64,000 nucleotides of DNA from NCBI GenBank assembly GCA_964199315.1, contig OZ116706.1:31124001-31188000 (forward strand). Direction: 5' to 3'. The position numbers and the translations under genes are program-made. The notes beneath the pieces are model-generated. The model searched no databases. It was not told the DNA's origin and saw only the letters and a program-made list of their open reading frames with translations. This document shows positions 1 to 64,000 of this stretch, one piece after another (positions within the stretch are counted from its first letter, which is position 1; each line of letters opens with the position of its first letter). This stretch comes from Orbicella franksi. Lineage: Eukaryota.

Positions 1-480
1 ATCCAGCAACTCTTTGTCTTCACCTCCCTCCGCCATGCGATCGTCTAATACGAGGAATCTACCCTTCGGAAACCACGACTTGAGATGGTCTGACTCCGGA
101 ATCCCTTCGTGAAATTGCACACCAGCGTCTTTCATGTCTCGGAATCCATTTTGCCACACCCCGTAGCAATAATGAGTCGTGGGAGGAGGTTTCACAAACA
201 ATTCTTCCAAGTGATCCAAGAGTGACGATTCGGTAAAACAAGTCTTGCCACAACCAGAAGGGCCCACGACCAAAATACTGGAGGGGATCTTGAACCGAAA
301 TGCTTCTCCAAATTCTATTCCATTTGAGAACCCATTCTGCTTTTCGCCAGGAAATGGGATCTTTGGGACATTTTCTCGTGGTTTTTCTGATCCACTGCTT
401 TGACAACTATGTTTCTCGTGACGAATTCTACTGTCTGCACGAGAGAATAGTCTATGAAAATATCGACAATAAAGGGACAT
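1..480 (-). CDS. Polinton/Maverick packaging ATPase (FtsK/A32-like), 3'-truncated by window edge
   Basis: Stop-free frame 480->1, absent from the ORF track because it has no stop in the window: ...EFGEAFRFKIPSSILVVGPSGCGKTCFTESSLLDHLEELFVKPPPTTHYCYGVWQNGFRDMKDAGVQFHEGIPESDHLKSWFPKGRFLVLDDRMAEGGEDKELLD. Walker A GPSGCGKT at 241-264, Walker B FLVLDD at 40-57. The true start may be near 320 rather than 480. Confidence 0.8.
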   Translation of the reverse strand, partial: MSLYCRYFHRLFSRADSRIRHEKHSCQSSGSEKPRENVPKIPFPGEKQNGFSNGIEFGEAFRFKIPSSILVVGPSGCGKTCFTESSLLDHLEELFVKPPPTTHYCYGVWQNGFRDMKDAGVQFHEGIPESDHLKSWFPKGRFLVLDDRMAEGGEDKELLD

Positions 481-1274
481 GAGTCCTTGCTAGTTTGACT
501 CAAAATAAAATGAATGGAGGCAGTTTAAGCCTTATTTTTATACATGGTTGACGATAGACGTGGTGAGTGTGGTGGAGGTGGTGGTGGTGGTGGTAGTGGT
601 AGTGGTGGTAGTGAATATGGTGGTAGTGGTGGTGGTGGTGGTGTTGGTGAATGTGAAGGTGGTGGTGGAGGTGTGAGGAATTTACTGCTTCAAGGGCGAG
701 ATGTTGAAGCCACCGCAGTGTGCCATCGTTTTAGTTCCACCTCACAAAGGATTCACGCTGCCTGCCATGATGGTGATAGTGCAAAAATGGAATCTTTACA
801 AGCACACCAAGTCCAGGGAACACTGTAACAACTATAAACTCTTGAAAGATGTTCTGATCAACCTAAGACGCCGGGGCCTGGGTGAGCCGGAAAAATTAAG
901 ATGCCGTCCATTTCTGAAAAACGCTTTGACTCACATCACCGATCTTCAGACTCATATAAAAGCCAGACAGGAACCCTGGAACATTTTCGAGCTGATGTAA
1001 CTCCAGGACTTATTGCTGGACAATCAACTATCGATTGTCGAAGTAAAACCGGCCGATCATTCGTGTCATTTTCTCTTTGTGGAACCACCGGCCCTCGACA
1101 GCCTTTTCAGGAAGGGCCCCATTTTCACGGGTTAAAAAATCCGTTGATCTTTTTTGAAAAATTGTCTTTTCCACTGCTGTTGTTAGATGACCTTTATTAA
1201 AAAAGGCCTTTTCCAGTGTTGTTAAGAAAAATAAATTCAGGTTTGAACGTCGTGAGAGTCTCAGCTTTTGATTA

Positions 1275-1625
1275 CCCACTTAGGGTTCTTAGGATTTAGT
1301 TGGGTTTAAGCCCTTAGGTTTCAGTTGGGTTTAGTTGGGTTTAAGCACTTAGGGTTCACTTAGAGTTACCCACTTAAGGTTCACCACTTGGTTTAAGCAC
1401 TTAGGGTGCACGCGCGCCAGCGCACGGGGTCATCTCGTGGTGAGCAAACTGAGATTTATTAGAAAACCGCGGACGCCAGCCTCGGGTTTAGTTGGGTTTA
1501 AGCAGTTAGAGTTACTCACTTAGGGTGAACCACTTAGGGTTTAGCCACGCTAGCCTTGGGTTTAGATGGGTTTAAGCACTTAGGGTTATAACCACTTGGG
1601 GTTTAGGCACTTAGGGTTATAAAAC
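1275..1625 (+). repeat. Degenerate telomere-like (CACTTAGGGTT / TTGGGTTTAAG) repeat tract in Polinton subterminal region
   Basis: Repeated cacttagggtt, cacttagagtt, cacttaaggtt and gttgggtttaag units. Confidence 0.8.
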
Positions 1626-2947
1626 CACTGGTAGAGCGCGCGAGCTGGATCTGGGACCCGCGCTCTAGAACTTTCCCACGGACCGCGTCAGCCTGTTTAG
1701 CCACTTGGGGTTGTAAAACCACTGGGAGAGCGCACGAGCTGCACCTGGGACCCCACTCTGGAACTTTCTTCAGGGGCCACGTCAGCCTGGGCTGACCTGG
1801 ACACGTTCCACACACAACCCCCCACGGATCACGTCAGCGTTTTAGCACTTTCTTCACCCCCAACAGGCCACGTCAGGTTGGACCGGCCTGGACACGTTCC
1901 ACCCAACCTCCCCACGTTCTAGCACTTTCCACCCAACCCCCCCAATAGAGGGTCCGTGCCCATACTCCCCCAGGGTTGACGTCAGCGCCATCAATCGGAA
2001 TTGACGTCACAGATTGCACCACATCGCCTCCCAAAATCGGAAGTGTCGTCACAGCAAGTGGTGCGGTGGGTGATGACGTCATTTTTTCGAACTTTTTTTG
2101 GCGGCCATGTTGAAAAGTGGGTGCGGGCGGGCTAATCTGGTACCCCATATACTACTGTTCCCGACACAGTCCGAGTTAGGAAAAATGTGTTTTCAGTCTT
2201 CCTTGGTTCATGAATTTCGTTTTGTCGCAGGTGATTGCGAAAGATGGTAGTCGTTTTGTTATTGTTCTGTCTGAAGGGAAAAATATAATCAGCCTTTGTC
2301 ATCGGTATGTACTGAAAAGGTAGAGCTGGAATTGTACTTTTTAGGATGGCTTATGACGAGTGTGTCATAATAAAACGTTAAAAGCTTGGTAAAAAGTGAA
2401 TATTTTGTCGCCAAGCAGAATTAGGGGTGGAAATTAAGCGATATCGGCTACTAGCGAGACAGCGCGATAATAGTAACGATAACAGCAAGGGAAATTGTCC
2501 TATCCACAAGAGAAATACCAGACAAACTAGTCCGCAACTGGCGAGTGATTCGTGATTTCACAGGTCAATTTCAAAGGCACATGGGTGACTAATGTCAAAG
2601 AGATCTAAAAGGAAATTTGAGACAGTTTGCTCTTCACTCGTTCTATCCATTATTTTTAAAATACAGATACCTATATATTCGTCCTTGCGTTTGCCGACTG
2701 TTAGTTCAAATTGCGGCGATATACCATTCCTGTCAATGTTTTGGGGCAATTTTCGTGTTACCATATTTCCACCTTCCCCAACCCTACTCTACACCCTCCC
2801 CTTTCCCCATAGATGACGAAAATACCTACACAGCCCTCCCTAAGTATTAATTTTTGATAAAAACTGGTCTAGAAAATGGTCCAAAAAATGGTCCAAAAAG
2901 ATAGTCCAACAGTCCAGTCCATATCTTACTCTGTGCCTATCCAATTC

Positions 2948-3086
2948 AAGACTAGAGTACAAAAATCATATCCTATATAAGACCAACATGGCTAAAATCG
3001 ATACCTTATTTATGACCAAAACGGCTGAAAAACCATACCTTTTGGGGCTGCACGTACCTATATAGCCCATATAAGGGAGTACCCCC
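2948..3086 (-). mobile_element. Fragment of a short non-autonomous DNA element (MITE-like)
   Basis: Ends in ...atatagcccatataagggagtacccc and resembles an abundant interspersed repeat I recall from coral genomes. The partner TIR was not found. Confidence 0.35.
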
Positions 3087-3791
3087 GACCGATCTCCATC
3101 GTTCTCTCAAGTCAAGGCTTTGCTGTTCCTCCTCAGCCTCGCACTTTTAGCCTAGCCTACCCATGAGGGGTGTTACTGAAACCGTGGGTGTTTTGTCCTA
3201 CATGTAAAAGCAGGGGGGAGGGGACGGGTAGGGAGAGCAGAGATGTAGGGAGATGGTAGTGGGAGAGGGGAGAAACGCCTTCTTCCTTTTTCTTCCTCGC
3301 GTTTCCCCCCCGCCACCCTCCTCTTCAACGTCTACACCGTGTAGATTAGATTTGTATTGTAAGAGTTTTAAACTCATTCATTTAATGTTTTATTTGTCAA
3401 TTGTGAATAGCTTTAATGAATAATTTTGTAAAGCGCATGTGAACGTGTCCACTTGTTAGTATGTGTTATAAAAGTACCATCATCATCATTATTTATTTAT
3501 TAAAATAGATTCTACACTTTCATAATCCTTGTTAAAAGAATCAAGAATATACAACTTCTAAAATCCACTTTTTCTTCTTTCATTTCAGAAGTCTGCATTT
3601 GGTTAAAGTCGACTGCCTCGTAAGAGGGAACAGATTTCCACACCTCCTTAATTCTAGCTTGATACAAGATGTTTTCAAAATGGAGATTGCGTTCTGTTTG
3701 TTGTATGTGCCAGCCATTTGAGTGTGTCCGTGTGACGTAACACCACTCTAATAAACCTTCAAGAGCGTGGTCTTTTATGTGGTTCACACTG

Positions 3792-6700
3792 TCACGGCAG
3801 AGCCATCATGTCAAGCAATGAATTAAGTTTGGCATTAAGCCATGTGACTTGTTTTGGTAGTAATCCATCAATCCAGTCCCGAGGTAGTTCAGAGTATCCA
3901 ACTTTACACCCCAACATGGCGCCCGCTACTGTCCCATTACAGGTGGCATGGCCTCCCTGCATCACAAGCTCGGTTATTGTTGTCCTGTAGACAAAAGAAA
4001 ACCCTTCTTGTAATATTACCGCAGATTACCCAAGCCCTCTTTAAATGAGGTACTTCATGGTTCGCGCATCTTGAAAAGTTTAGCCTAAATTGTTCAATTT
4101 CGTCGTTTGAAATCTGTGTCAATCTTTTCCAATCCTAACTTATGGTTTATTATTATCTCCTTGGTGCTTTTCCATCTTAGCAAACTACTATTTTCAGGTT
4201 TCCTTCAATTCAAAGATAGTTCAGCACGCGGCCAAACCAACTCAAAATACCGTGACTGAGCTCCTTTAAGTGTAGTCGTAAGACTAAAAGAATGCGAAAT
4301 AAAATCGCTTTTTCATTTGTCTGTTCAATTAGTTCAAGAAATATGAAAACAGTATGCTAATTGAGAGTCGCTCATGTATCATTACTAACGGTAACTCATA
4401 TTTTGCTAGCCTCCATTTTACACAGTAAATCAAAATGAAAAGAATGATACTCGTGTGGAATGTATCTTCGTACTTGTAATCTTTCATAGATCTGAGTGCG
4501 ACCAAACCAGCTCCTAATGGTTTCAAAGTGTAATCTGTCAGCCTTGGTTCACAGAATTCCACACTAAAATGGAATAAACATTTCATCAAAATCAACTTGA
4601 CATACGATCTTTTCTTACAAGATAACAGCATATCCCCAAATTCAGTCCGTGTACAACCCAGGTTTAGCTTGGGAACAAATTCTCAGTGGGAATTCGGCGA
4701 GAGGGCAAAGCGCGTTCTCTTAATGCACTCAATGTAGATACCAGCCCCTCTCAAACCTCTTGTTAATGTGGTGCTAGCGAGAACACAAACCACGGTAAAA
4801 TGCATAACTGAAGCAATTTTCAAGCCACCAACTTTACCACAAAGAACTCCTTTCACTACATATTTGTGTACTCAGCATTTCTGTAGGTACCATGCCCATG
4901 CTATGTACTTCGACAGCTGAGGTCAGTGAATTGCTTTAAAACATCTACCAACACACAGAACTATCACATACATGTAGTATATCAACCACCACCAGTTGAT
5001 GGTTGGCTGGCAAGTTGGCTTGTATTACAGAACTTAAGTCACAAATCCACCAATCCAGCATCTAGTACACAATCTTGAGCCCCCAAGCTATTCCATAGAA
5101 AATAAAACAGAAGTTGTGAAGAGGAAACTTACTCTTCCCACGTCTGGCAATTAAAATAGTGGTAAAAATCCTTTTGATGAAAAGATTCCATTAAATGAAG
5201 CTTTCCCTGTTCTTTAGCTTTCTCTAGCATTTCTTCCAGAGAAGACTTGCTTGTCAAGTCATGCTGTCCCTGTAAAAGAAAACAAAACAGCTTTTAAAAA
5301 AAATTGGAAGTTCTACATAGTGTTTAGAGCAATGCTGGGTAATGATAAACACTGAGAGCCTAATCACAAGCTTGGAGCATTCTACATTACTTGTCATTCA
5401 ATAAAATAGTGGGTACAACCCACCTGGGACTCTACAGATACTACAGCAAAGGTTACACTGAAATTAAATACCTGCAACATCAATGCGATGATAATGCATA
5501 CAGCAACACAGCTTGCAATGCATCTAGCAGTTCAAAGCAAAACCACTTATTAATTAAACATAAAATCTTGTAATCTTGTAGAAAGCCTAATCAGTAATGG
5601 TCAGTACCTACAGATCAGGATTTAATGCTACTTGGGTCCTTGTGTTGGCTCAAAATTGGCTGAATTGTTACAAGGTGAGAGAATCTGTCAGGCAGCAGTT
5701 TTTTCAACATATACAGCTGGGTAATCTTGGATTTCATTGTCAACAGTAGTTCTGACTGCCTAAAGCATTTTCTAGTCTGTCTAGTGTGATTGTATGGGTG
5801 AGGGTAGTTTTGGTTCAAGCCATTTACTGTAAAACTTTTCTTTAAGCAATCCTTGAACCCTACTCACCTGGGATCACAGTGAGTAGCCTTGCATATCCTT
5901 ACAGCATTTGTTGCTACTTCATTTAAGTCATGGAAATGAGCAATACCAAGAGCTGCTACTCTCATTACTGCTCCATTAGATGAGGATTCTAACTTGTTTG
6001 CCACTGATCTGGCTGCACCATGAGGATCACTCAGAAACTCTGGATCACACACAACCTACGGCAGGATTATTACAGAAAATACTGCAGTACATCAAATATT
6101 TTAGAAGAATGGTAGAACATGTTACCAAAAGAAGGAGCATGATGTCAGAAAGGCCAAGGCTTACTCCAGCTGATGGATGAACAAAAAGCGGCTCCATGGC
6201 TGAAGAGGCCAGAAAGAAAAAAGAAGGAGGGGGGCAATGAACTTGGATTTCTCAACGAGCTGTTGGGGAGATTGGTTGCATAATAACTCGGTAGAACATT
6301 ACCTTGGCAAGAACACCCCTCACCCCTCGCCCCACGGTATCACCCAGTTCAGGAAAGCCATGTTTGCACCAGGAAAGGAGGCTCTTAGCAAACTCCAGTT
6401 CATCAACAACACCAGCCCAGTGAATGATGTTTTCAAGGATTAACACCTAAAACCAAAGCAAAACAGAGTTAAATTTCAGGAAAACCTTGATAATTTTGCA
6501 CTGTACATTTTGTACCACTATGTATTTGTACAAGTTTGTTAACCAGGTTGCCATAGGTGAGCCCAACTTCTATAACAATCACAACCTGTGCCACTACTGT
6601 ACTTCTCCCCAGACTCACGATTGCCCTATCAAGCAAACCAGCACCAATCCCAGAAAAATGCACGCCAGGCAGAGACTGGTTTTAGTTTGGTTGAGTAGAA

Positions 6701-47229: not shown

Positions 47230-48037
47230 CGGTCTCGGCTTCTTTACAGTGCCTCAATAAATCTAAAAAGGCCTAAATTTTGGCCACCATGCACATAACC
47301 AAGCTTTCGATTAGTTTTCGCTTGTCAATTTTACTAAAGGACAAAGTCTTCACGAGTTAGTTTTAAGTCCCTGGGACTCGGAAATATCGTCCAAGTTCTT
47401 GGAAATCAAGTCTAAGTAGGACAAAATCTAAGTTTTCGTAGCCCAGTTCAGTTCTTCTTCTATCCATTGTCAGAGAAAGTCCAACAAGGGCTATATTTCG
47501 GGCCACCATCCTTATAACCAGGCTTTCTATTAGTTTTCCTCTGTCGATTTCACTGAAGGAGCAGGTCTTCGTGAGTTAGTTTGAATGCCCTGGGACTCGG
47601 AAATATCGTCTAAGGTCTTGGAAATCAAGCCTAATTAGGTCAAAATCAAAGTTTGCGCTGCCTGGTGTCTGCTTCTTTCCACTGTCTGAGTAAGTCCAAT
47701 AGGGGCAATATTTCGGCCACCAAGCACATAACCAAGCTTTCGTTTATTTTTTCGTTGTCGATTTCACTGAAGGAGAGGTCTTGGCGGGTTAGTTTAAAGT
47801 CCCTGGGACTCGGAAATATCGTCGAAGCTCTTGGAAATAAAGCCTAAGTAGGTGGAAATCAAAGTTGGTGCAGCCCGGTCTCTACTGTCTCTACTCAGAC
47901 GGTGGAAAGAAGCAGACACAGGGCTGCGGAAACTTTGATTTTATGGTACCTCGACTTGATTTTCAAGGGCTTGGACGATATTTCCGAGTCCCAGGAAATT
48001 TAAACTAACTTGAGAAGACCTTCTCCTTCTGTGAAAT
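47230..48037. repeat. Satellite family A, diverged copies (+ 47230-47885, inverted 47896-48037)
   Basis: Units containing gtccctgggactcggaaatatcgtccaagttcttggaaatcaag; the reverse-complement copy starts at 47896. Confidence 0.8.
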
Positions 48038-48047
48038 AAGAGACCTT

Positions 48048-48466
48048 TATGAATTCAGTTAAATGGCCTTGCTCTCTATGAGTTCTCGTAGCTCAGTGGA
48101 TAGAGCACCCGCCCGGTGTTCGGGAGGTCATGGGTTCGATTCCTGTCGGGGACTCACAATTTTTCTTTGTCCCACTCTCTTGTCATGTTGATTAATTCAC
48201 CTTCACATTTCATTACCGAGCTTAAAATTCACCATCTTTATTAACTTATCACTACTGACGATGACTTCGATAGCGTTGATCCTAGCAGTATGCATGACAC
48301 CTGTCATATATGAACTCAGTGAAATGGCCTTGCTCTCCATGAGTTCTCGTAGCTCAGTGGATAGAGCGCCTGGCCGATGTTCGGGAGGTCATGGGTTCGA
48401 TTCCTGTCGGGGACTCAGAATTTTTCTTTGTCCCACGCTCGTGTCATGTTGATTAATTCACCTTCA
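48048..48466 (+). mobile_element. Tandem dimer of tRNA-derived SINE-like unit (period 261 bp)
   Basis: Two copies of tagctcagtgg...ggttcgattcc (A box at 48089 and 48350) with a shared non-tRNA tail. Confidence 0.75.
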
Positions 48467-49790
48467 CAAGATGGCGGCAAATTAGACTATCATGGCCGTT
48501 GTTTGGACTTCATCCTCTTTTCAACCCGTCAAAGAGATTGGATTCTAGTATCAAGAGATGAAATTCCAGGCGACCAGACTGCCTTGATGTAAAGACAAAA
48601 ACAAGCAAATTGCTAGGAAAAACGCTATTAGACCTGAAATGTATGACTTCGTCTCAAGATGCGGGCCATATCAGACTAACACTGCCGATGTTTGACATCA
48701 CTCTGTTTTTCACCCGTTAAAGGGATGGGATTCTACCTTCGAGAGATGAAGTTTTACGTTACACTTTTATATCTTGATATTCTCATCAAAAGTACCAAGC
48801 TACTAGATAAAAAGTTATTAGACCAGAAAATTTACACTTCGCTTCAAGATGGCGGCAATCTTAGACTATCGTGGCCGTTGTTTGGACTTCATCCTCTTTT
48901 CAGCCCGTGAAAGAGATGGAATTCTAATATCGAGAGATGAAGTTCCAGGCGACAGTAGACTGCCGTGATGTAAAGACAAAAACTAGCAAGGTACTAGGAA
49001 AAACGCTGTTAGACCTAAACTGTTCGACTTCGTCTCAAGATGGGGGCCATATCACACTAACACTGCAGATGTTTGACATCACTCTGTTTTTCACTCGTTA
49101 AAGAGATGGCAGTCTACTATCGAGAGGTGAAGTTTTACGTTACAATTTTATATCTTGACATTCTCATCAAAACTACCAAGCTACTAAATAAAAAGTTATT
49201 AGACCAGAAAAAATTTACACTTCGTTTCAAGATGGCGGCCATGTTAGACTGTCTGGCGAGTTACTAGAGAAAAACGCTATTAGACCTGAAATGTATGACT
49301 TCGTCCCAAGATGAGGGCCATATAAGACTAACACTGCTGATGTTTGGCATCATTCTTTTTTTCACCAGTTGAAGAACAGATGGGATCATCGAGAGATGAA
49401 ATTTTACGTTACAATTTTGTCTCTTGATATTCCCACCAAAACTAACAAGCTACTACATAAGAAGTTATTAGACCAAAACGTTTCAAGATGGCGGCCATAT
49501 TAAAGTATCGTGGCCGTTGTTTGGGCTTCATCCTCTTTTCAACCTGTGAGAGAGATGGGATTCTAAGATCGAGAGATGAAGTTCCAGGCGACAGTAGGCT
49601 GCCTTGATGTAAAAAAAAAAAAAAACTAGCAACGTACTAGGAAAAACGTTAAAAGACCCGAGATGCTGGACTTCATTTGAAGATGGTGGCCATATTAGAC
49701 TAACTGGCCGATGTTTCACAACATTCTCTTTTTCACCAGTTGAAAAGATGGGATTTTACTATCGAGAGACGAAGGTTTAAAAGTTTTATA
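48467..49790 (+). repeat. Satellite family B, ~190-bp subunits in ~380-bp dimers, YY1-motif-rich
   Basis: CAAGATGGCGGC at 48467, 48845, 49228 and 49484, with alternating variant subunits between them. Confidence 0.85.
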
Positions 49791-49859
49791 TCTTGATATA
49801 TATTGATAGTTTTATATCTTGATATAGATATAGAAACTGAAGAACAAGGTCTCTTTTCC

Positions 49860-51312
49860 AGTGTTTAAGTTAGCTTAACAGGGACTATATATATTTCGAC
49901 CTGCATGCTCATCACCAAGCGTTCAATTACTTTTTCCCTGTCGATTTGACTGAAAACCAAAGTCTTCTCAAGTTAGTTTAGAGTCCCTGGGAGTCGGAAA
50001 TATTGTCCAAGTTCTTGGAAATCAAGCCTAAGTAGGTCAAAATGAAGATGCGCGTAACCCGGTCTCGGCGACTTTTCCAGTCAGTTTAAGTAAGTTTAAC
50101 AGGGGCTATCTTTCAGCCAGACTGCTCATAACCAAGCGTTCAATTATTTTTCTTGTCAATTTCACTCTAAACTAAGGTCTTCTCGAGTTAGCTTAGAGTC
50201 TCTGAAAGTGGGAAATATCGTCGAAGTTCTTGGAAATCGACCGTAAGTAGGTCAGAATCAAGGTACGCGAAGCCCGGTCTGCGACTTTCCAGTCACTAAC
50301 AAAGTTTAACAGGGGCTATATTTCGGCCAGACTGCTCAGAACGAAGCGTTCAATTGCTTTTCCCTGTGGATTTCACTGGAAACCAAGGTCTTCTCGAGTT
50401 AGTTTAAAGTCCCTGGGACTCGACAATATCGTCCAAGTTCTTGGAAATCGACCCTTAGAAAGTCAAAATCAAGGTGCGCGTAGCCCGGTCTCGGCGACTT
50501 TTTCATTCAGTTTAGGTGAGTTTAACAGGGGCTATATTTCGGCCAGACTGTCCGAAACCGAGAGTTCAATTATGTTTCCCCTGTCGATTTCACTGGAAAC
50601 CAACGCCTCCTCGAGTTAATTTAGAGTCCCTGGGACCGGGCAATGTCGTCCAATTCTTGGAAATCGATCCTAAGTAGATCAAAATCAAGGCGCGCATAGC
50701 CCGGTCTCGGCGACTTTTTCATTCAGTTTAGGTGAGTTTAACAGGGGCTATATTTCGGCCAAACCCAGCGTTCAATTATTTTGCGCCTGTCAATTTCACT
50801 GGAAACCAAGGTCTTCTCGTCCAAGTTTTTTGAAATCGACCCCAAGAAGATCAAAATCGAGATTCGCGTAACCCAGTCTCGGCGACTTTTACAGTCGGTT
50901 TAAGTGAGATTAACCGGAGCAATATTTCGGCCAGACTGTTCGAAACCGAGAGTTCAATTATTTTTTCTCTGTCGATTTCACTGGAAACCAACGCCTCCTC
51001 GAGTTAATTTAGAGTCCCTGGTACGGGGCAATGTCGTCCAAGTTCTTGGAAATCGATCCTAAGTAGGTCAAAATCAAGGCGCGCGTAGCCCGGTCTCGGC
51101 GACTTTTTCAGTCAGTTTAAGTAAGTTTGAGAGGGTCTATACTTCAGCCAAACTGAGCGTTCAATTATTTTGCGCCTGTCAATTTCATTGAAAAGCAAGG
51201 TCTCCTTGAGTTAGTTTAGAGTCCCTGGGACTCCGCAATGTCGTACAATTTCTAGCAATTCGACCCTAAGGGTGGGTAGCCCGGTCTCGGCGACTTTTTC
51301 AGTCAGTTTAAG
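49860..51312 (+). repeat. Satellite family A, ~213-bp monomers, + orientation
   Basis: The gagtccctggg anchor or a close variant recurs at about 49981, 50197, 50409, 50625, 51013 and 51220. Confidence 0.9.
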
Positions 51313-53030
51313 AATCTCAAACCCAAGCATTGTCCAAATCGACAGACTACCACAAGTGAAATAAACGTGTGTAGATTTTAGAAAGGGTCAAATCTAGCAT
51401 TTTTAAAAGGCCCAGTAAGCATAGTTTGAGATCCCGACACCAAAACCGCGAGTATGGCGCATCTGTAAACGGGCGAGAACTTACTAGAGAAAAGAAAGTT
51501 GATATGGGCAAGAATCTCTCACCCAGGCACTGTCCAAATCGATAAACTTCCACAAGTGAAATACACGTGTGTATTTTTGGGGAGAGGCTAAAAATAGCAT
51601 CTTTAAAAAGTTAGGTAAGCATTAGTTGGGATACCCGCTTCTAAAACGCGAGTGTGGCACATCTCTAAACGCGCGAAAACTTACGAGAGAAAAGAAAGTT
51701 TATATGGGAGAGAATCTTCATCCTAAGCACTGTCCAAATCGGTAGACTTCCACAAAAAAATCTTTTGTGTAGATTGTGGAGAGGACCAAAAGTATCATTT
51801 TTAAAGAGCCATGTAAGCATAGTTTGGGATCCCCACACCAAAAACGCGGGTTTGCCGCATTGCTAATTGCGCGAAAACACGAGAGTGAAAAAAAGATCTT
51901 AATAGGCAAAAATCTTTAACCCAGGCATTGTCCAAAGCGAAAGACTTCGACAAGTGAAATACACGTGTGGAGATTTGAGAAAGGGCCAAATCTAGCATCT
52001 TTAAATATTCCAGTAAACACAGTTTAAGATCCCGAGACCAAAACCGCGAGTTTGACGCATCTCTAAGCGCGCGAGAACTGACTAGACAAAAGAAAATTGA
52101 TGTAGGCGAGAATCTCATAATCAAGTACTGTCCAAATTAATAGACTTCCACAAGTGAAATACACGTGTGCAGATTTAGGGAAATGCTAAAAGTAGCATCT
52201 TTAAAAAGTTAGGTAAGCATTGGTTCGGACCCCTGCACCTAAAACGCGAGTGTGGCGCATCTCTAGACGAGCGAGAACTTACGAGAGAAAAGAAAGTTTA
52301 TAGGGGCAAGAATCTCCAACCCAAGCACTGGCCAAATCGATAGACTCCAACAAGTGAAATACACGTGTGTAGATTTGGGGGGGGGGGGGGGCTAAACGTA
52401 GCATCTTTAAAAAGTCAGGTAAGCATTGGTTGGGATCCTCGCACCTAAAACGCGAGGGTGGTGCATCTGTAGACGCGCGAGAACTTACGAGAGAAAAGAA
52501 GGTTGATATTAGCGAGAATGTCCAATCCAAACACTGTCCAAATCGATACCCTTACACAAGTGAAATACACGTGTGTAGATTTGAGAAAGGGCTAAATCTA
52601 GCATCTTCAAAAAGTCCAGTAAGCATAGTTTGAGACCTCGAAACGTAAACTGCGAGTGTGGCGCATCTCTAAACGCGCGAGAACTTACGAGAGAAAGGAC
52701 AGTTGATTTGGGCGCGAATCTGACTGGTTGGGATCCTCGCACCTAAAGCGCGACTGTGGCGCATCTCTAAACGCAAAGAACTTACGAGAGAAAAAAAGTT
52801 GGTATGGGCGAGAATCTCCAACCCAAACACTGTCCAAATCGATATACCTGCACATGTTAAATGCACGTGCGTAGATTTGGGGGAGGGCTAAAAGTTGCAT
52901 CTTTAAAAAGTTAGGTAAGCACTAGTTGGGATCCCTGCACCTAAAACGGGAGTGTAGCACATCTCCAAACGCGCGAGAACTTACGAGAGAAAAGAAAGTT
53001 GATATGGGCTAGAATCTTTTACCCCATGAG
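51313..53030 (-). repeat. Satellite family C, ~200-bp monomers, reverse orientation
   Basis: cacaagtgaaatacacgtg or a close variant recurs about every 200 bp; the array is the reverse complement of the one at 61460-64000. Confidence 0.9.
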
Positions 53031-53894
53031 GGGACGCAAATGACTTTTACTGGAAGTATTTCTTCCAGTTTTTTTTTAATTCTATGAGAACAGGGCTGTA
53101 TTCCTCTCGGGCTGTGGGTGTAATTCGTAAAAACACTGAATTCTTATAAATCGTTTAGAAATTCTTCGTTCCAGTTCAAATTTATGCTGCTGGCACATGG
53201 GTGGACAATTTATATGTAGAGCGTGATGTAAGATACCTTAAACTATTTTTACTGTTCATGATGCATTGCTACGTTAGTCTGCTTTATAAATATTTAACTG
53301 CAGTGGTCGAGTTGATTAAACGTTCTTTTTAAGCGTTCTTGTTAGAAATGATGCAAAGTTTTTTTTAGGAAATTCAATTTGAAGAAAAGGTCCTGTTAGT
53401 ACCTTCGTGTTACTTAATGACAATTTTGCGGGGTTTCTTTTACCAGGGCGCTTCATGACGCCTCCTGGAATAAGCGGATCAATATCAGCATGTGGGCAAA
53501 TGACCTTACATAAATATAACGATGTAAAATTATCAAAATCGCCTTCTGTTACTCATGACTCCAAAATAGCCTCATGTAATTTTTTTCTTAAATCAGTCGA
53601 ATTAACATCAGTAAATCGGCCGAATTAAAAAAAAATTAAATCGCACTGTTTACTTTTAAAGCACTAATAGTGTCGTGATTGCATTTTAAAGCTTGTCTCA
53701 TATTCCATCGGCCATTTCTGGTTTATTTTTTATTTAACATCATCGACATGTCACTAAAACGGATTATGACGCCTTCCCTGGCCGCAAGACGAAGAATCCT
53801 AGTGAGAGTGTATAAGGAATGCTAGGGAAATTTCCTACCATTTCTCTGCGGTACTTACAATAAAAGCCCCGTGCGTCCCGTCATGCGTCTATTT

Positions 53895-56310
53895 TCAGGG
53901 ACTTGGGCGATATTTCTAGGTGACAGGGACTCTAAACTAATTAGAGAAGACTTTGGTTTTCAGTGAAATGGACAGAGGAAAAATTTTAAAAGGCTTGTTT
54001 ATAAGTAGTCTGGCCGAAATATAGCCACTTAGTGACTAGAAAGTCTCCGAGGCCGGGCAACGCTCAGCGTGATTTTGACCAAATTTGGGTCGATTTCCAA
54101 AACCTTGCGCGTTATTTCCAAGTCCCAGGGACTCTAAATTAAATTAAGAAGACTTTGGTTTTAAATGAAAAGGACAGAGGAAAATTTTTGAACGCTTGGT
54201 TATAAGCAGTCTGGCCAAAATATAGCCCCTCTTTAACTCACTTAGTGACTAGAAAGTCGCCGAGACCGGATTTTGACCAACTTTCTGTCGATTTCCAAAA
54301 ACTTGGGCGATATTTCCAAGTCCTAGGGACTCTAAACTAATTCGAGAAGACTTTGGTTTTCAGTGAAATGGACAGAGGACAAATGTTTGAACGCTCACTT
54401 ATAAGCAGTGTGGCCGAACTATACCTCCTGTTTAACTTACTTATTGACTAGAAAGTCACCGAGACCGGGCTACGCGCAGCGTGATTTTGACCAACTTTGG
54501 GTCGATTTCAAGAAACTTGGTTGATGTTTCCCAGTCCCAGGGACTCTAAACTAATTCGAGAAGACTTTGGTTTTCAGTGAAATGGACACAGGAAAAATTT
54601 TTGAACGCTTACTTATAAACAGTCTGGCAGAAATATAGCCTCTGTTTAACTCACTTAATGACTAGAAAGTCGCCGAGATCGGCCTACGTGCAGCGTGATT
54701 TTGACCAACTTTGGGTCGATTTCCAGAAACTTAGGCGATATTTCCCAGCCCTGGGGACTCTAAACTAATTCGGGAAGACTTTGGTTTTCAGTGAAATGGA
54801 GGGAGAAAACATTTTTGAACGTTTATTTTGGAGCAATCTGGCCGAAATATTAACTCACTAATTGACTATGACTGGAAAGTCGCCGAGACCAGCCTTAGAA
54901 GCAATTTGCCCGAAATATTAACCACCTTAGTAACTATGACTAGAAAGTGGCCGAGACCGGCCCACACCCAACGTGATTTTCACTAACTTTTGTGCCGATT
55001 TCGAGGAACTTGGGTGATATTTCCCAGCCCTAGGGACTGTAAACTAATTCCAAAAGACTTTGGTTTTCAGTGAAATGGAGAGAGGAAATATTTTTGAACG
55101 CTTACTTAGGACCATCTGCTCGAAATATTAACTTCCTTCGTGACTATGACTAGAAAGTGGCCGAGAGCGGCCTACGCGAAACGTGATTTTCAGCAACTTT
55201 GGGCCGATTTTCAGGAACTTAGGCGATATTTCCCAGTCCTAGGGACTCTGAAGTAATTCAAGAAGACTTTGGTTTTTAGTGAAATTGACAGAGGAAAAAT
55301 TATTGAACGCTTACTTGTCTTACTTAGGAGCAATCTGCCCGAAATAATTATTAACTCCTTTAGTGACTATAACTAGAAAGTGGCAGAGACCGGCCCACGC
55401 GCAACGTGATTTTCACCAACTTTGGACCGATTTCCAGAAACTTGGGCGATATCCCCAGCCCGAGGGATTCTAAACTAATTCCAGAAGACTTTGGTTTTCA
55501 GTGAAAAGGACAGAGGAAAAAGTTTTGAACGCTAACTTAGGAGCAATCTGCTCGAAATATTAACTACCTTAGCAACTACGACTAGAAAGTGGCCGCGACG
55601 GGCCCACGGAAAACGTGATTTTCACCAGCTTTGGGCCGATTTCCAGGAACTTGGGCGATATATCCCAGCCCTACGGACTCTAAACTAATTGCAGAAGACT
55701 TTGGTCTTAAGTGAAATGGACAGAGAAAATATTTTAGAACACTTACTTAGGAGCAATCTGCCAGAAATATTAACTCCTTTAGTGACTATGACTAGAAAGT
55801 GGCCGAGACCGGCCCACGCGCAACGTAATCTTCAGCAACTTTGGGCCGATTTCCAGAAACTTGGGCGATATTTCCCAGACCTAGAGACTAAACTAATTGC
55901 AGAAGACTCTGGTTTTCAGTGACATGGACAGAGGAAAAATTTTTGAACGCTTACTTAGGAGCAATCTGCTCGAAATATTAACTTCCTTAGTGTGATTTTA
56001 AGACTGAAAAAGTAGCCGAGACCGCCTTACGCGCAGCGTGATTTTGACCAACTTTGAGTTGATTTGAAGAAAATTGGGGGATATTTTCCAGTCCCACGGA
56101 CTCTAAACTAACTCCTGGTGGCCTTGGTTTTCAGTAAAATGGACAGAGGAAAATAAATTGAACGCTCGCTTACGGGCTTCTAGGTCGAAATATAACCCCA
56201 CTTTATTTTAAGACTGAAAAAGTAGCAGAGACCGCCTTATGCGCAGCGTAATTTTGACCAACTTCGGGTCGATTTCCGGGAACTTGGGGGATATTTTCCA
56301 GTCACTAACT
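53895..56310 (-). repeat. Satellite family A, ~210-bp monomers, reverse orientation (~11 copies)
   Basis: gggactctaaactaatt and aagactttggttttcagtgaaatggacagagg recur about every 200-220 bp. Confidence 0.92.
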
Positions 56311-56329
56311 CGTGATCGGAGCAATTAAT

Positions 56330-56616
56330 TATTTTTCCTCTGTCCATTTCACTAAAACCCAAGGCTATCACAGGTTAGTTTAAAGTCCTTGGGACTGGAA
56401 ATCGACCCAAGGTTAGTCAAAATCACGCTGCGCGTGAGGCGGTCTCGGCTAGTTTTTTAGTCTTAAGATTAACTAAAGCTATATTTCGGCCTAGAAGTTC
56501 GAAACTGAGCCTTCAATTATTTTTCCTCTGTCCATTTCACTAAAAACCAAGGTCACCAGGAGTTAGTTTAGAGTCCCTGATACTGGAAAACATCCCCCAA
56601 TTTTCTTCAAATCGAC
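56330..56616 (+). repeat. Satellite family A, + orientation, interrupted by transposon
   Basis: ttttcctctgtccatttcactaaaa units; the array resumes at 58440-58478 after the insertion. Confidence 0.8.
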
Positions 56617-58439
56617 CAGGAGCCATAATCGGGGACGGAGACCGTAAGCGCGCGCCATTTCTAGTATTGGGGTTGTCCCCATGATATGGGACAATAATGC
56701 TATTTTTAGAACAAATTGCGCTATCGCCTGCGGCACACGCGCGTACATGCTGCGAGGATTTTTGCGGATGTTGCGCGGGAGAAATGGCGTCCGAAATTCC
56801 CGAAATTTTTCATGTTTTTGGCCCACAACTCAACGCGTTTACGTTTGTTGGAATTTTTCTTAAGTAGTTTCGTCGTAAGCTGCTCCAGTTTGAGTGAAGT
56901 AAGACAGTGTCGAATTTAGGTATCTTCCGCTTTAAGCTTATATATATCGCTGACCAGGTTGTGTTTCGACGGATGCTTCTTTTACATGAGCTGTACATTA
57001 CTCCACTTTAAATTTCACGTATGTTGAAGATTAACAGCTTTTCCATTACACAGCAAAAAACTAGGTGGATATATTTCGATACAGCAGAGCTTCAGGACTT
57101 CATAGTTTCCCAGCTCCTCTTGCCACACGCTTGCGAGGAATTTGCCAGTCTATCGTGACTGAAAAGTAAAACAAAATAATTGCTAGTTTGGTCAGTTTGA
57201 GTTTCGCCTGAATTGTAAGCAACGCTTGATGTTTCATCAAGGCCCAATAACTTTACGTCCGTAGATACTGCTCAGTTTTATTCGTGTAAAAATCCAGTAA
57301 ATTCTCTGTTGTCGATGAATGAGAGCGCCCGCCGATGCGTGTTTTGTACAGTCAGTAAATATGACAAATTGTACTTCCGCCGCCAAAGCGTATATCGAAC
57401 TCAAACAATAACTCTATAGTTTTTAAATATGTTTAAGATTGATAAATGTTTGAGAACATATTAGAAGCTAAGCTGAAAATATGTGAATAAAACAGAAATA
57501 ATCAGCAAAGTTACGATGACGCTTTCTTTAATCAACTTCGCATAACGATTTCGATTTTGTTGATCGAGTCATCAAAACTCCTTGTCTATTTTCATTTTCG
57601 CAGTGTAAAACTTCGCTATGCTTATGGTGAAGAAACACACATGATGCTAGTAGCCTTTTTTGCGTTGGTGAAATTTGTTGCAGCATCTCAGCACAAAAGA
57701 TAAAGAGAGAAATCTTTGTCAAGATTTGTTGATTATTGAAAACACCGACTCGGACTTGAAAGTGCACGGGCTGCACTATGCAAATGAGCTAATTGTACGC
57801 GTCAGACTTTCCTTTCAAAAACTTTTGCAAACTCACTAAACCAGCAGAAACAATAAGAAACCATCAAAACAGGCTTTGGTTATGATTAACCATTGTCTGA
57901 GAAACTCACAAATTAACTCGATACCAGAGTAGAGAGTTTTCTTGCTATATTCTTAAGTCAAAACAAACGCAAAAACATGCGTAAGCTTACAACTAGCGCG
58001 AGCAGATCTTATTTCTCATTCCCAGCGCGAGATTGAAGTCGACCCTGAAAAACCCACCTTTTCCGTTAGCTCAGAGCATAAAACTACATATAAGCGCCCT
58101 GTTTCGTATTCCCTGCCTTATTCCCTGCCATCGATGTGAAAAATACGCAAGATAATCTCTCAAGGTCTCTCAACTCTCACCATTTTTATGACGCAACGTG
58201 ACAACATCCCCGCGAGAGCCCCCGACATGTGCCAACCTCGTTCCCAGGGTCCTCTCTTTTCCTCCCTCGAGGGAGGAAGAGAGAGGACCCTGGGAACGAG
58301 GTTGGACATGTGCGTGGATCCGCGCGGATATATGATGTCAGGATAGCGCAATTTGTTCTAAAAATAGAAAAATTGTCCCATATCATAGGTGTGCGCGGAT
58401 CCCAAGGCTTACGGTCTCCGTCCCCGATTATAGCTCCTG
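56617..58439. mobile_element. 1823-bp non-autonomous DNA transposon (P-element-like: CA..TG ends, 7-bp TSD)
   Basis: 33-bp TIR CAGGAGC(C/T)ATAATCGGGGACGGAGACCGTAAGC at both ends; an additional subterminal inverted repeat (atgatatgggacaat...ttagaacaaattgcgctatc); TSD AATCGAC at 56610-56616 and 58440-58446. No transposase recognised. Confidence 0.8.
58233..58304. mobile_element. 72-bp palindromic mini-MITE nested in the P-like element
   Basis: CAACCTCGTTCCCAGGGTCCTCTCT...AGAGAGGACCCTGGGAACGAGGTTG; 9-bp TSD GACATGTGC at 58224-58232 and 58305-58313. Confidence 0.88.
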
Positions 58440-58478
58440 AATCGACCCAAAGTTGGTCAAAATCACGCTGCGCGTAAG

Positions 58479-59165
58479 CCCCACTTCATTTTAAGACTAA
58501 AAAAATAGCCGAGACCGCCTTACGCGCAGCTTGATTTTGACGAACTTTGGGTCGATTTCCAGGAACTTGGGGGATATTTTTCAGTCCAGGGGACTCAAAG
58601 CTAACTCGTGATGGCCTTGGTTTTTGGTGAAATGGACAGAGGTAAAACGATCGCACGCTTGGTTTCAAGCTTCTAGGCCGAAATATAGCCCCACTTCATT
58701 TTAAGACGAAAAAAGTAGCCTAGACCGCCTTACGCGCACCGTGATTTCGACCAACTTTGGGTCAATTTCCAGGAACTTGGAGAATATTTTCCAGTCCCGA
58801 GGACTGGAAACTTACTCGTGATCGCCCTGGCTTTCTGTGAAATGGACAGAGGTAAAACAATCCTACGCTCTGTTTCGAGCTTCTAGGCCGAAATATAGCC
58901 CCACTTCATTTTAAGTCTGAAAAAGTAGCCGAGGTCGCCTTACGCGCAGCGCGATTTTGACTTTGGGTCGATTTCCAGGAACTTGGGGGATATTGTCCTG
59001 TCCCGGGGACTCTAAACTAACTCGTGATGGTCTTGGTTTTCGGTGAAATGGACAGAGGTAAAACGATCGCACGCTCGGTTTCGAGCTTCTAGGCCGAAAT
59101 ATAGGCCCACTTTATTTTAAGACTGAAAAAATAGCCGGGACCGCCTTACGCTCAGCGTGATTTTG
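58479..59165 (-). repeat. Satellite family A, reverse orientation (~3.3 copies)
   Basis: ~208-bp units with ccccacttcattttaagact...gagaccgccttacgcgca. Confidence 0.85.
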
Positions 59166-60689
59166 TTAAGTCGAAAAACATACTTATTTGATAGATATGA
59201 AAATGTGAAAGCTTTCTGGTCAATGAATGAAAACATTTTTTAGCTTTATTTGCGTTCATAATGTATTTAGTTTAACATCGTGAATGCTTTCTGGAGGTAC
59301 AGATAATCATGTTACAACATCTTTATTGCGGCGGAAAGTATATATCTTGTCAGTAATGGTGTTTGAACGAAATATATATTTTTCATAAACGTAGTGATGA
59401 GAATTTCTTTACTTTCATACATCATTTGATTTCGACGTAAACACCACTTTTACCTCTAAAAAATCGGCTAAAAAGAAATTCGCTAAATGATTTCGCGAAA
59501 TTAAAAAAATAGACCATAAAACACAATTTAAAAGCACCTGTTCCAAATAATGGACTATTCCCAAATAATAGAACAAGAACTTGAAAATTGGGAACAAGAA
59601 AATTTCGCTGCATGATTAGCCTGTTTGTGTTAAAACTGGTATGAAATAAGTATTTTACTAAAGTCACGAGATCAGTTGGGCAAATTTTCCTGAAGGGTGT
59701 CTAAGGACTATAAATTATTGTGACAGCTATACGTTAGTTAGAAAGACTGTAGCATAGCTAGAAACAACAACGATTCAACTCTAACTCTGCTCAAATCCCG
59801 TTTTGTTGCAAACAATTCTATTTCTAACGACCATTTTGGAAAGGAAGATTCCTTACAAGCTGCTATAAATAATTAACAGAAGACAAGGACCCCTCAAAAC
59901 CTGAAATACGCTTTTGCCAATTCTGAAATCAGCTTAGGCGGTGTTCGACAAAGTCGTTGAAGAGTTCTTTCTCCGGCGAGGACATGAAGCCTGTATGTGA
60001 TAAATTAAATAAAATTATTTACAGCACAATTGCCACCGCAAAACGGTGAGTGCGTGGTTCGATAATATCATATAAATAGAAAGTAAAATGTTGCTTGCCT
60101 TACTCAGCTAATGTACCTTGTTACTTTGCCCCTTAAATCGTCGATTAAAGCCAGCAGAAACGATTCAAATTGCTGCAACATAAATGCGTTGCTAATTATA
60201 GCGAATACATAAATGGAAATGGAAATTGTATGGCGGTCGTTTGCGAGATTTCTATGTTGAAATGGAATGAGAAGTGTCATTAGTGCGCAGGCAAGGAGCT
60301 AAATTCTACAAGCAAAACGATCACAATCGTTTTAAGGTTGCGTTTTTAGTACCCTTCAGGTGTTACAGGGATATTATTATTGAAAAATGATGATTATGAT
60401 AATGGTTATGATTACTTTTTTATCAGGATCGCCTCATAGAACCGGCGCCTGTTATATACGGTAAATACCTAATTCAATACTTACAGATACTACACTATAC
60501 AAGCTCTCGGGTACTTGAACAAAGAGGCCTTAAGATTGGAAGGTTTTTGCGTGTTTTGGAGCATTTGTTGTACAACTAAAAAGCGCAAGCCGGCCAACGA
60601 GCCGAAAGCCAAGGGTGGTAGTCTAATGCTTTGCGCTTTAGGCGTATAACACCTTTGACAGCTGTAAGTTCTTCTATTTAGCGCAAGGG

Positions 60690-60900
60690 TCAGAACAGTG
60701 AAAGGGCTTTGAGATGGGGCCTACGGTTTTTTGTCCTTATCCTAGAAGACTGGAATGTCTAACCATTTGTATATGTCACAACAAAGGTAGCACATTCTTC
60801 TCAGTTATTTTAAGACCATAATAGTGTTGGTTCGGTCGGGGTTTGAACCCGGACCTCCTGCTTGGCAGACCGCCGCTTAACCCATTGAGTTAACCGGGTG
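60690..60900 (-). mobile_element. tRNA-derived SINE
   Basis: The minus strand has a tRNA-like head (ttaactcaatgggttaagcggcggtctgccaagcaggaggtccgggttcaaacccc) followed by a non-tRNA body. Confidence 0.6.
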
Positions 60901-61459
60901 ACGTTCAACATAAACGCCAGTACTGTTGGTCATGCTTTAAAGTTTACAGGCATTGTTTTCGAAGACGCAGTTTTTGAAACAAGAACAAATATGTGGCATA
61001 CGAATGCTACTATAAAGGTACTGGTGCTGTTGCTTTATCGTATATAAAGTGTGTTACACACTACTGGATATGCCCCATCGTAAGCTAAAGACAGGTACAT
61101 CAATTAGCAGTTAATTGATACGGCAGTACCTTCTGTTTAGGATAGTACGGAGTGGTGTTTTAAGCACCAAAGGCTGGTATTATATCGTAAGATGTGGCGA
61201 GTACCAGCACAGGCACAGCCAGATTAATCGATAATTACAATTGCGACTCAATAATTAGATATATTATATACAGTATATATCTAGGCACCTAGTGCACAAA
61301 TCAATATTTTGCCATAAAGAACGATAGTAATAATAGATATATTTAACAATTAGTTAACGGAAGCTGAGTATGATGTGAAAAATTGTGCATATCGATGTGA
61401 TCTGATAATTCTTCACATCATAAAAAAGCCGAATTCAATAATTAAATCTCACTCATATC

Positions 61460-64000
61460 ATTTTTCCTTTTTCTCGCGCATCCTAGCGCGTTTACCGATG
61501 TGCCACAGTCGCGTTTTTGGTCTCGGAATCCTAAACTATGTTTAATGGATCTTTAAAAGATGCCAGTTTTGGCCCTCGATCAGATCACTACACGTGTACT
61601 TCGCAAGTAGAATTCTAACGAATTGGTCAGTAAGTGGGTTAGAGATTCTCGCCAATGACATTTTACATTCCTTTTAGCGCTTCTTCACGTGCTTAGCGAT
61701 GTGCGACACTTGCGTTTTCGGTATCGCAATCCTAAACTATGATTAGTGGGTAAAAAATACGTCAGTTTTGGCCCTCCATCAAATCTCCACACCTGTCTTT
61801 CACGCGTGGCATTCTATCGAGTTGAACAGTCCTTGTGTTGGAGATTCTAGCCAATGTCATTTTTATTTCTTCTTGCGCGCCTTTACGCCTTTACCGATGT
61901 GCCACTGTCGCGATTTCGCTCTCGGTATCGTAATCTATGCTCAATGGGTTTTTTAAAAGATGCCAGTTTTGACCCTCCGTCAAATCACGACTCGTGTGTT
62001 ATACCCATAGAATTCTAATAAATTGGTCAGTAAGTTGCCTGACGATTCTAGCTAATGACATTTTTCTTTCTTTTGGCGCTTTTTCGCGCGCTTACCTATG
62101 TGCCACACTCGCGTTTTCGGTCTTGGAATCCTAAACTATGCTTCCTGGGTTTTAAAAGATGGCATTGGTCCTCGGTCAAATTACTACACATGTGTTTCCC
62201 AAGTAGAATTTAAACGAATTGGTCAGTAAGCGAGTTAGAGAATCTAGCCAATGATATTTTTTTTCTTTTGGTGCTTCTTCACGTACTTAGCGATGTGCCA
62301 CACTTGCGTTTTGAATGTCGTAATCCTAAACTATGGTTAATGGGTAAAAAATATGTCAGTTTTGGCCGCCCATCAAATCTCCACACCTGTCTTTCACGCG
62401 TTGAATTCTATTGACTTGGAAAGTCTTTGTGTTGGAAATTCTTGCCAATGTCATTTTTATTTCTTCTTGCGCACCTTTACGCCTTTACCGATGTGCCACA
62501 GTTGCGATTTCGCTCTCGGTATCCTAATCTATGCTTAATGGGTTTTGAAAGATGCCAGTTTTGACCTTCCATGAAATCACTACTCCTGGGTTATACCCAT
62601 AGAATTCTGATGAATTCGTTAGTTAGTTGGTCGAAGGTTCTCGCCAATGACCTTTTTTTCTTTTGGCGCCTTTTTGCGCGCTTACCGATGTGCCACACAC
62701 GCGTTTTCGGTCTTGGAATCCTAAACTATGCTTCCTGGGTTTTGGAGGATGCCATTTTTTGGCCCTCGGTCAAATTGCTACACATGTGTTTCCCAAGTAG
62801 AGTTCTAACGAATTGGTCAGTAAGCTGGTTAGATATTCTAGCCAATGACAGTTTTTTTCCTTTTTGGTTCTTCTTCGCGTGCTTAACGATGTGCCACACT
62901 TGCGTTTTGGGTCTCGCAATCCTAAACTACGGTTGATAGGTAAAAATATGTCAGTTTTGGCCCTCNNNNNNNNNNNNNNNNNNNNNNNNNNNNNNNNNNN
63001 NNNNNNNNNNNNNNNNNNNNNNNNNNNNNNNNNNNNNNNNNNNNNNNNNNNNNNNNNNNNNNNNNNNNNNNNNNNNNNNNNNNNNNNNNNNNNNNNNNNN
63101 NNNNNNNNNNNNNNNNNNNNNNNNNNNNNNNNNNNNNNNNNNNNNNNNNNNNNNNNNNNNNNNNNCATCAAATCTCCACACCTTCTTTCACGCGTGGCAT
63201 TCTATCGAGTTGGACTGTCCTTGTGTTGGAGATTCTCGCCAGTGCCATTTTCATTTCTTCTAGCGCGCCTTTACGCCTTTACCGATGTGCCACAGTCGTG
63301 ATTTTGCTCGCGGTATCCTAATCCATACTGAATGGGTTTTTGAAAGATGCCAGTTTTGACCCTCCGTCAGATCACCACTCTTGTGTTATACCCATAAAAT
63401 TCTAATAAATTGGTTAGTAAGTTGGTTGAAAATTCTCGCCAAAGACATTTTTGTTACTCTTGGCGCTTTTTCGCGCGCTTAACGATGTGCCGCACACGCG
63501 TTTTCGGTCTTGGAATCCTAAACTATACCTACTGGGTTTTTAAAGATGCCACTTTTGGCCCTTGGTCAAATTACTGTACACTTATTTTACAAGTAGAATT
63601 CTAACGAATTGGTCAGTAAGCGAGTTAGAGAATCTAGCCAATGACCTTTTTTTCTTTTGGTGCCTCTTCGCGTGCTTATCGATGTGCCGCACTTGCGTTT
63701 TGGATCTCGCAATGGTTAATGGGTAAAAAATATGCCAGTTTTGGCCCTCCATGAAATCTCCACACTTGTATTTCACGCGTTGCATTCTATTGACTTGGAA
63801 AGTCCTTCTGTTTGAGATTCTCGCCAATGTCATTTTTATTTCTTCTTGGGCACTTTTACGCGTCTAGCGATGTACCACATTGGCGACATTGGAGCTTTCA
63901 GTATCCCAATCTACGCCTTATGGGCTTTTGAAAGATGCCAGTTTTGACCCTCCGTTAAGTCTCCAAAAATGTGTTTCACCCGTAGAATTCTAATAAATTT
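61460..64000 (+). repeat. Satellite family C, ~197-bp monomers arranged as a ~590-bp 3-mer higher-order repeat
   Basis: The gatgtgcc anchor or a close variant recurs at about 61498, 61698, 61897, 62099, 62292, 62494, 62688, 62888, 63284, 63484, 63681 and 63869; every third monomer is most similar. Confidence 0.9.
62966..63165. other. Assembly gap (200 N)
   Basis: Run of 200 N. Confidence 1.

Follow-up and report, generated by a model that had tools for sequence, protein, structure and literature searches.

The first 2,156 bp of the window, i.e., of the 64,000-nt stretch of coral DNA that was analysed (G000:C9:31124001-31188000), are best explained as the right half of a 5.1-kb non-autonomous mini-Polinton that belongs to a long-lived coral family and probably lives as a capsid-hijacking satellite of full-size Polintons (probability roughly 0.6). 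The complete element measures 5,118 bp (G000:C9:31121039-31126156, or L001:4039-9156) and runs from AGTAGT to ACTACT. It is a member of a lineage of complete, small, helper-ended and recently mobile elements that occurs in many copies and has a three-gene core under selection. Its features are given below in window coordinates or, left of the window, in coordinates of L001.

L001:4033-4038: left target site duplication (TSD), GTTCCC
L001:4039-4755: left terminal inverted repeat (TIR), starting with AGTAGT
L001:5459-5965, minus strand: basic ORF, rich in Lys/Arg, broken in the window copy (dN/dS 0.29)
L001:6087-6611, minus strand: acidic ORF (dN/dS 0.28)
L001:6656-7000, minus strand: 3' part of the ATPase gene, which ends ~345 bp left of the window
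Window 1..2156: right-hand part of the element (2,156 of 5,118 bp), the remainder of which sits left of the window
Window 1..489, minus strand: 5' portion of the frame for the zinc finger and packaging ATPase, with the ATG at 480, Walker A at 241-264 and Walker B at 40-57
Window 397..480, minus strand: N-terminal C2H2/C2HC-like zinc finger, fused to the ATPase, with its second Cys replaced in the window copy
Window 560..673, plus strand: GGT-rich low-complexity repeat, immediately upstream of the ATPase gene
Window 716..1204, plus strand: ~490-bp segment also present in the C2 sister copy and, at 68-80%, in three host loci outside Polintons
Window 1272..2156: right TIR, which matches the left arm in ~90% of ungapped columns
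Window 2151..2156, plus strand: right terminal motif ACTACT, an (AGT)2//(ACT)2 Polinton end
Window 2157..2162: right TSD, GTTCCC (host DNA); the same hexamer precedes the left end

The left limit of the element lies ~2,960 bp upstream of the window. An inverted copy of the right terminus is found there at G000:C9:31121038-31121227 (91% over 189 nt; E 1e-67), which begins with AGTAGT and has GTTCCC directly before it. The inverted arms extend over ~720 bp with 90% identity counted at ungapped columns. Since both ends, a perfect TSD and an inverted repeat of this length coincide, the limits of the element are not due to chance. The interior of the right TIR contains short repeats (GGGTTTAAGCACTTA-like units), duplications of 94 bp and 91 bp and GACGTCA-type motifs. 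A preliminary description of this DNA had placed a Polinton-type end, ACTACT, at 2156 and expected an inverted copy to the left as well as a GTTCCC TSD, and it was right in all of these respects: ACTACT at 2151-2156 is followed by GTTCCC, the copy lies 3 kb left of the window and a perfect 6-bp TSD flanks both ends. Ends of the type (AGT)2//(ACT)2, inverted arms and such a TSD are hallmarks of Polintons according to section 7 of PMC8097293 and to PMC10748475, and the element has them all. Its length of 5,118 bp lies outside the range of 13-25 kb that PMC10748475 gives for autonomous Polintons. In the host DNA on either side, a 37-bp inverted repeat (89%) occurs at L001:3989-4025 and at window 2212-2248, from which it follows that the insertion fell within a small palindromic host feature.

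The expectation of an adintovirus-like genome further to the left had to be given up. The element stops at the inverted end, and neither within it nor in the 27 kb left of the window was there a marker match to pPolB (for which 5,118 bp would leave no room), the rve integrase, the adenain-like protease or the major and minor capsid proteins; together, these observations rule out a full-size adintovirus upstream. The markers are genes from full-size elements of the same genome and match all 12 full-size regions, across clades too. Those for capsid and protease were assigned by position and size in full-size elements, and the ones run against Pfam gave no family; their names follow the gene order of Polintons. 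The distance of ~1.7 kb between ATPase and terminus, which had been considered unusually short, was itself correct (1,676 bp from the ATG to the terminus), but it follows from the small size of the element, a size usual for its family. The number of family members and their common architecture also rule out a one-off truncation.

The minus-strand frame at 1-489 is stop-free and encodes GPSGCGKT at 241-264 and FLVLDDRM from 57 downwards; the entire ATPase frame comprises 277 codons from stop to stop, or 274 amino acids from the ATG at 480. Both Walker motifs had been recognized correctly in the preliminary description, and its assignment to the A32/FtsK-like packaging ATPases agrees with the profile and fold comparisons. 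Pox_A32 is the best Pfam match of the window protein with 16.7 bits, under the cut-off of 22.8, and it matches 20 of the 24 aligned family members at E 0.01, while zf-C2H2 matches two of them. A 113-row alignment with a mini-Polinton ATPase as its first row shows no variation at the Walker A Lys and the Walker B Asp. For the ATPase domain of a young family copy, a structure was predicted with a pLDDT of 92 (a model from a 24-row alignment reached 46 and was set aside). Its best match is the packaging NTPase B204 of STIV2 (Z 14.8, rmsd 3.1, 179 residues), with which VirB4 ties at 14.6, and adenovirus IVa2 and A32-like ATPases are its best matches in the viral model library. The predicted fold of the ATPase is that of viral packaging NTPases; translocases without a packaging role share folds of the FtsK/HerA type (VirB4 and HerA at Z 13-14.6). 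A cellular ATPase was considered as well and rejected, as a sequence search of the PDB returned Walker A-level matches only and both fold and neighbours indicate viral packaging ATPases. The zinc finger is absent from the ATPases of the aligned full-size elements.

Between the ATPase start and the right TIR, the GGT-rich repeat, which reaches ~1 kb in younger copies, is followed by the ~490-bp segment at 716-1204. The latter has no Pfam match and is likely captured host DNA; the matching host loci were checked as possible parents and none has hallmark genes. For the acidic ORF neither a Pfam family nor a usable Atlas family was found, and the basic ORF gave a weak lead in the Atlas at 0.92, with recognition below the threshold.

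The window copy is one of many. Among the best 150 of 236 candidates scored in a genome-wide ATPase search, 36 are at least 73% identical, and at least 49 loci bear a zinc-finger-type ATPase. At none of these 49 loci did a marker for the major or minor capsid protein, the protease or the integrase match, and pPolB fragments occur at a single one (L036), inside its TIR. When the ATPase matches were compared with the best 74 of 391 pPolB candidates, a pPolB was found at a distance of up to 16 kb for 0 of 36 close matches, one of 21 in the middle group and 56 of 93 in the most distant group. Both ends were called at 22 of the 49 loci. The elements between them measure 3.9-11.8 kb, except for a single one of 15.1 kb that contains a LINE insertion; the other 27 loci are without called ends. 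Perfect TSDs, every one different, flank 20 of the 22 end-called elements, where end calling partly demanded a near-perfect TSD and partly did not. Very recent movement of the family is evident from several copies whose arms share 99-100% identity along ~2 kb. Across at least four terminus types, the three-gene core remains collinear. With multiple independent insertions, helper-type ends and no replicase or integrase of its own, the family has the properties of non-autonomous Polintons. The main terminus also bounds ten elements that lack the ATPase, yet are flanked by perfect TSDs and have arms up to 99.7% identical, which implies that the ATPase is unnecessary in cis for transposition within the genome.

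Some members have a peculiar structure. L029:2513-7545 (G000:C2:34107212-34112244) is a near-perfect palindrome of 5 kb with two head-to-head ATPase genes, resembling a product of snap-back replication. At L031, a RING-finger ORF is present twice (L031:1658-2338 and L031:6146-6826) because it lies inside the long TIR of a young subfamily; a full-size element at L064 has a 31% homolog close to its end. A small AGTAGT-ended element of 4.5-5.2 kb (L187-L189; G000:C11:13727186-13732341) has a distant acidic-ORF homolog and no ATPase marker match.

Relatives with a species name stem from Oculina, Stylophora and Orbicella, and coral metagenomes are among the holders, which makes a stony coral the likely host. 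Of 141 metagenome relatives the best 80 were examined, mostly on short contigs; they include a zinc finger in 69, an acidic ORF in 51 and a basic ORF in 39 cases, and no hallmark gene in any of the 80. Of 67 metagenome loci, 41 have an intact zinc-finger motif. The contigs extend upstream, to where the protease gene lies in full-size elements, by 600 bp or more in 44 of the 67 and by 3 kb in 10. A scan of viral_contigs, which is no test of capsid packaging, found no relative.

The main terminus of the family has 89 occurrences, five pairs of which bound full-size elements of 17-25 kb with hallmark genes. These five carry a different ATPase (~70-75% identical where the frame is readable), and their pPolB is broken or short in every case. 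One mini-Polinton arm is 97% identical over 1.8 kb to the left end of a full-size element. The ATPase of L036 is 98% identical to that of L031, yet L036 has another terminus type, with pPolB pieces in it. The mini-Polintons thus share their ends with full-size elements, and in one copy these ends are visibly spliced from them. The terminus type of the window copy is present in only two elements, of 5.1 and 4.6 kb, and no full-size element with it was found in the genome. The acidic ORF is unmatched in all 12 full-size regions examined, and of the basic ORF only a short 3' fragment occurs, in two of them.

The full-size Polintons themselves are variable. Mosaic elements, with a capsid module 91-95% like one clade and a pPolB 67-69% like another, are found at G000:C1:11553418, C8:12239111, C9:23067818, C6:26559443 and C1:11513867. 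Dozens of stop-free pPolB frames of 1,350-1,390 codons are spread over many G000 contigs, and some elements contain pPolB twice in inverted orientation (C7:22256788/22271494 and C4:14530690/14545983).

Substitution rates, computed on naturally open-frame copies only, show that the ATPase, the acidic ORF and the basic ORF constitute a three-gene core under purifying selection. For the ATPase, a comparison of the window copy with 14 other copies gives a dN/dS of 0.20 (dS 0.27); the value is 0.14-0.15 when pooled over 37 open-frame copies and 0.12-0.13 at a dS of 0.3-0.8, compared to 1.55 and 1.72 in shifted reading frames used as a control. A codon model estimates omega at 0.28 and exceeds the best of four fits at omega 1 by ~96 log-likelihood units. 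ATPase variants shared by at least two copies comprise 116 synonymous and 69 nonsynonymous changes, against 64 and 96 among private variants (p 4e-5). The dN/dS amounts to 0.28 for the acidic ORF (36 rows), 0.29 for the basic ORF (20 rows) and 0.29 for the zinc finger (40 rows). The zinc-finger/linker part has a dN/dS of 0.96 among 10 near-identical copies and of 0.29 and 0.51 in a wider set. This constraint on the ATPase is far weaker than the dN/dS of ~0.001 given in PMC8097293 for autonomous fish Mavericks. In a tree built from 156 of the 162 sequences, the mini-type ATPases group with the zinc-finger ATPases (support 0.94), and this clade contains none of the seven full-size ATPases. The full-size ATPases in the genome are 62-75% identical to those of the mini-Polintons, and the clade also includes 21 database proteins without a detectable zinc finger. 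As would be expected of a satellite, the mini-Polintons are a lineage of their own with selected genes, separate from that of the helper.

A simpler explanation would be that they are ordinary deletion derivatives that arise recurrently from an unsampled full-size lineage; selection would then act in the parents and the ATPase would be a mere passenger in the miniatures. In its favour, ATPase-less elements move too and copies carry many private nonsynonymous changes (the 64:96 ratio above). The metagenome contigs that lack hallmark genes are mostly short, some sister clades come without context, and the pPolB search covers the best 74 of 391 candidates. Nonetheless, apart from the pPolB pieces in one TIR, hallmark genes are missing beside all 49 genome and all 80 metagenome loci, and the same collinear core recurs between at least four terminus types. 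Selection also persists between mini-Polintons of differing terminus type (dN/dS 0.20 at dS 0.27), and the acidic ORF is unmatched in the full-size regions, while its distant matches, checked as possible parents, are without hallmark genes. We consider deletion derivatives unlikely for these reasons.

If the mini-Polintons are satellites, the pPolB of a helper would copy them via a fold-back (panhandle) intermediate and its integrase would insert them, producing the 6-bp TSD. Fold-back replication would explain TIRs of 0.5-4 kb in which one end is copied onto the other, as well as the double-ATPase palindrome of L029. The ATPase may be selected during the multiplication of the element, most simply because it preferentially loads its own genome, in cis, into the capsids of a helper; the zinc finger would then be a DNA- or partner-binding module. 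A helper could supply an ATPase in trans, yet the gene stays under selection, which is most simply understood if it favours the element's own DNA. By analogy with phage satellites, the combination of a packaging-type ATPase with an added zinc finger points to such cis-preferential packaging. Extending this to a general statement, namely that animal Polintons have satellites, represented here by old capsid-less coral mini-Polintons that redirect helper capsids with a zinc-finger motor and swap termini to match the active helper, is a more tentative step, to which we would give slightly less than even odds.

The same selection and tree evidence would be obtained if these elements were selfish and non-autonomous, but selection maintained their ATPase for another role, either interference with the helper motor through mixed rings or translocation during replication or integration of the mini-Polinton. 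The FtsK/HerA-type folds do include non-packaging translocases, as the matches to VirB4 and HerA illustrate, and the identity of 62-75% to the helper ATPases could permit mixed oligomers. On the other hand, the invariant Walker A Lys and Walker B Asp fit an active motor rather than a poison subunit, and the replication and integration of ATPase-less elements argue against a role that is needed there. Such a function appears somewhat less probable still than an origin by recurrent deletion.

How a packaging satellite would relate to known systems is best seen by comparison. Autonomous Polintons/Mavericks (adintoviruses) are described from animals, stony corals included, in PMC8097293, PMC8502044, PMC10748475 and PMC11131425. 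With them, the mini-Polintons share (AGT)2//(ACT)2 ends, a 6-bp TSD, long TIRs and an FtsK/A32-like ATPase, and the RING ORF of the main subfamily has its 31% homolog in a full-size element. The mini-Polintons differ in their size (4-12 kb versus 13-25 kb), in the lack of pPolB, integrase, protease and major and minor capsid genes, in the N-terminal zinc finger of the ATPase and in the acidic ORF that is absent from the 12 full-size regions. Kapitonov and Jurka in 2006, and Repbase, reportedly described non-autonomous Polinton derivatives with helper-type ends and without replication or integration enzymes of their own, a description that fits the mini-Polintons, and the ten ATPase-less elements of this genome are of that kind. 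Unlike such decaying derivatives, the present family keeps a selected three-gene core (dS up to 0.8) and changes its ends. Phage satellites (PICIs, P4-like) are small elements without capsid genes that encode packaging components of their own. The mini-Polintons likewise lack capsid genes and keep a packaging-type gene, and the mode of life proposed here for them would be analogous, but they have an animal host, a linear genome with TIRs and neither an integrase nor a replicase. Transpovirons of giant viruses, too, are small and linear, have TIRs and rely on a larger virus, as is proposed for the mini-Polintons; however, their gene content includes a helicase, and they lack the integration with Polinton ends and TSDs that is seen in the mini-Polintons, which encode a packaging-type ATPase.

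In the literature searched, PMC6431247 and bioRxiv 2025.02.07.637071 included, neither a satellite of animal Polintons nor a lineage with a selected packaging gene and swapped ends was found, although entries for such elements may exist in Repbase or in supplementary libraries. The survey of coral Polintons in PMC11131425 demanded capsid genes and at least 10 kb, and would miss mini-Polintons for that reason. Non-autonomous Polintons as such are already known; apparently new is a lineage of them that retains a selected packaging gene and swaps its ends. If the proposed mode of life is correct, these elements would be a eukaryotic counterpart of phage satellites and would provide indirect evidence that coral Polintons make particles, as an element stripped to a packaging motor and two small genes, all under selection, argues that packaging happens. 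The family, with at least 49 loci, has also acted recently as a mutagen in the genome of a reef coral, and it displays terminus exchange between parasite and helper.

The copy in the window is older and decays neutrally. The same insertion is present in another sample (L111; 97.3% over 7.2 kb including both flanks), and nine nonsynonymous and five synonymous codons separate the two ATPase alleles, a ratio like that expected from drift. Only the window copy has an Arg behind the Walker B aspartates; Leu takes its place in 22 of the 23 other aligned proteins and in L111, in line with the earlier suspicion that DDRM hints at decay. The window copy has next to no coverage in four RNA runs, while the adjoining host ADP-ribosylglycohydrolase gene is spliced in three of the four. 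For the family as a whole, one raw run contained no reads and another 36, on both strands, and the contig depth could stem from DNA carry-over from ~40 copies; an interpretation of this signal as family expression was set aside on both grounds. As the alleles drift and the copy is silent in RNA, selection likely acts on the multiplying element and not on inserted copies. This bears on host domestication, in which the coral would retain the genes, e.g., for defence against Polintons. Many frames are indeed open and the window insertion is common to another sample. Still, the drift-like alleles, the silence of the window copy in runs in which the adjoining host gene is spliced and the stops or frameshifts in many family copies make domestication highly improbable.

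The ADP-ribosylglycohydrolase gene occupies window ~3450-6100 and beyond on the minus strand, with PF03747 in two exons, and the element lies ~1.3-1.6 kb beyond its 3' end. About 12 kb upstream of the element, a reverse transcriptase frame is found (L002:1-2082; L003:7670-9778), with a run of N farther up. Short, very high-copy MITE-like repeats at window 2961-3086 and 4150-4270 have deep coverage in most runs, and tandem-repeat arrays with units of ~200-220 bp extend over window 47277-62965, near the end of the contig.
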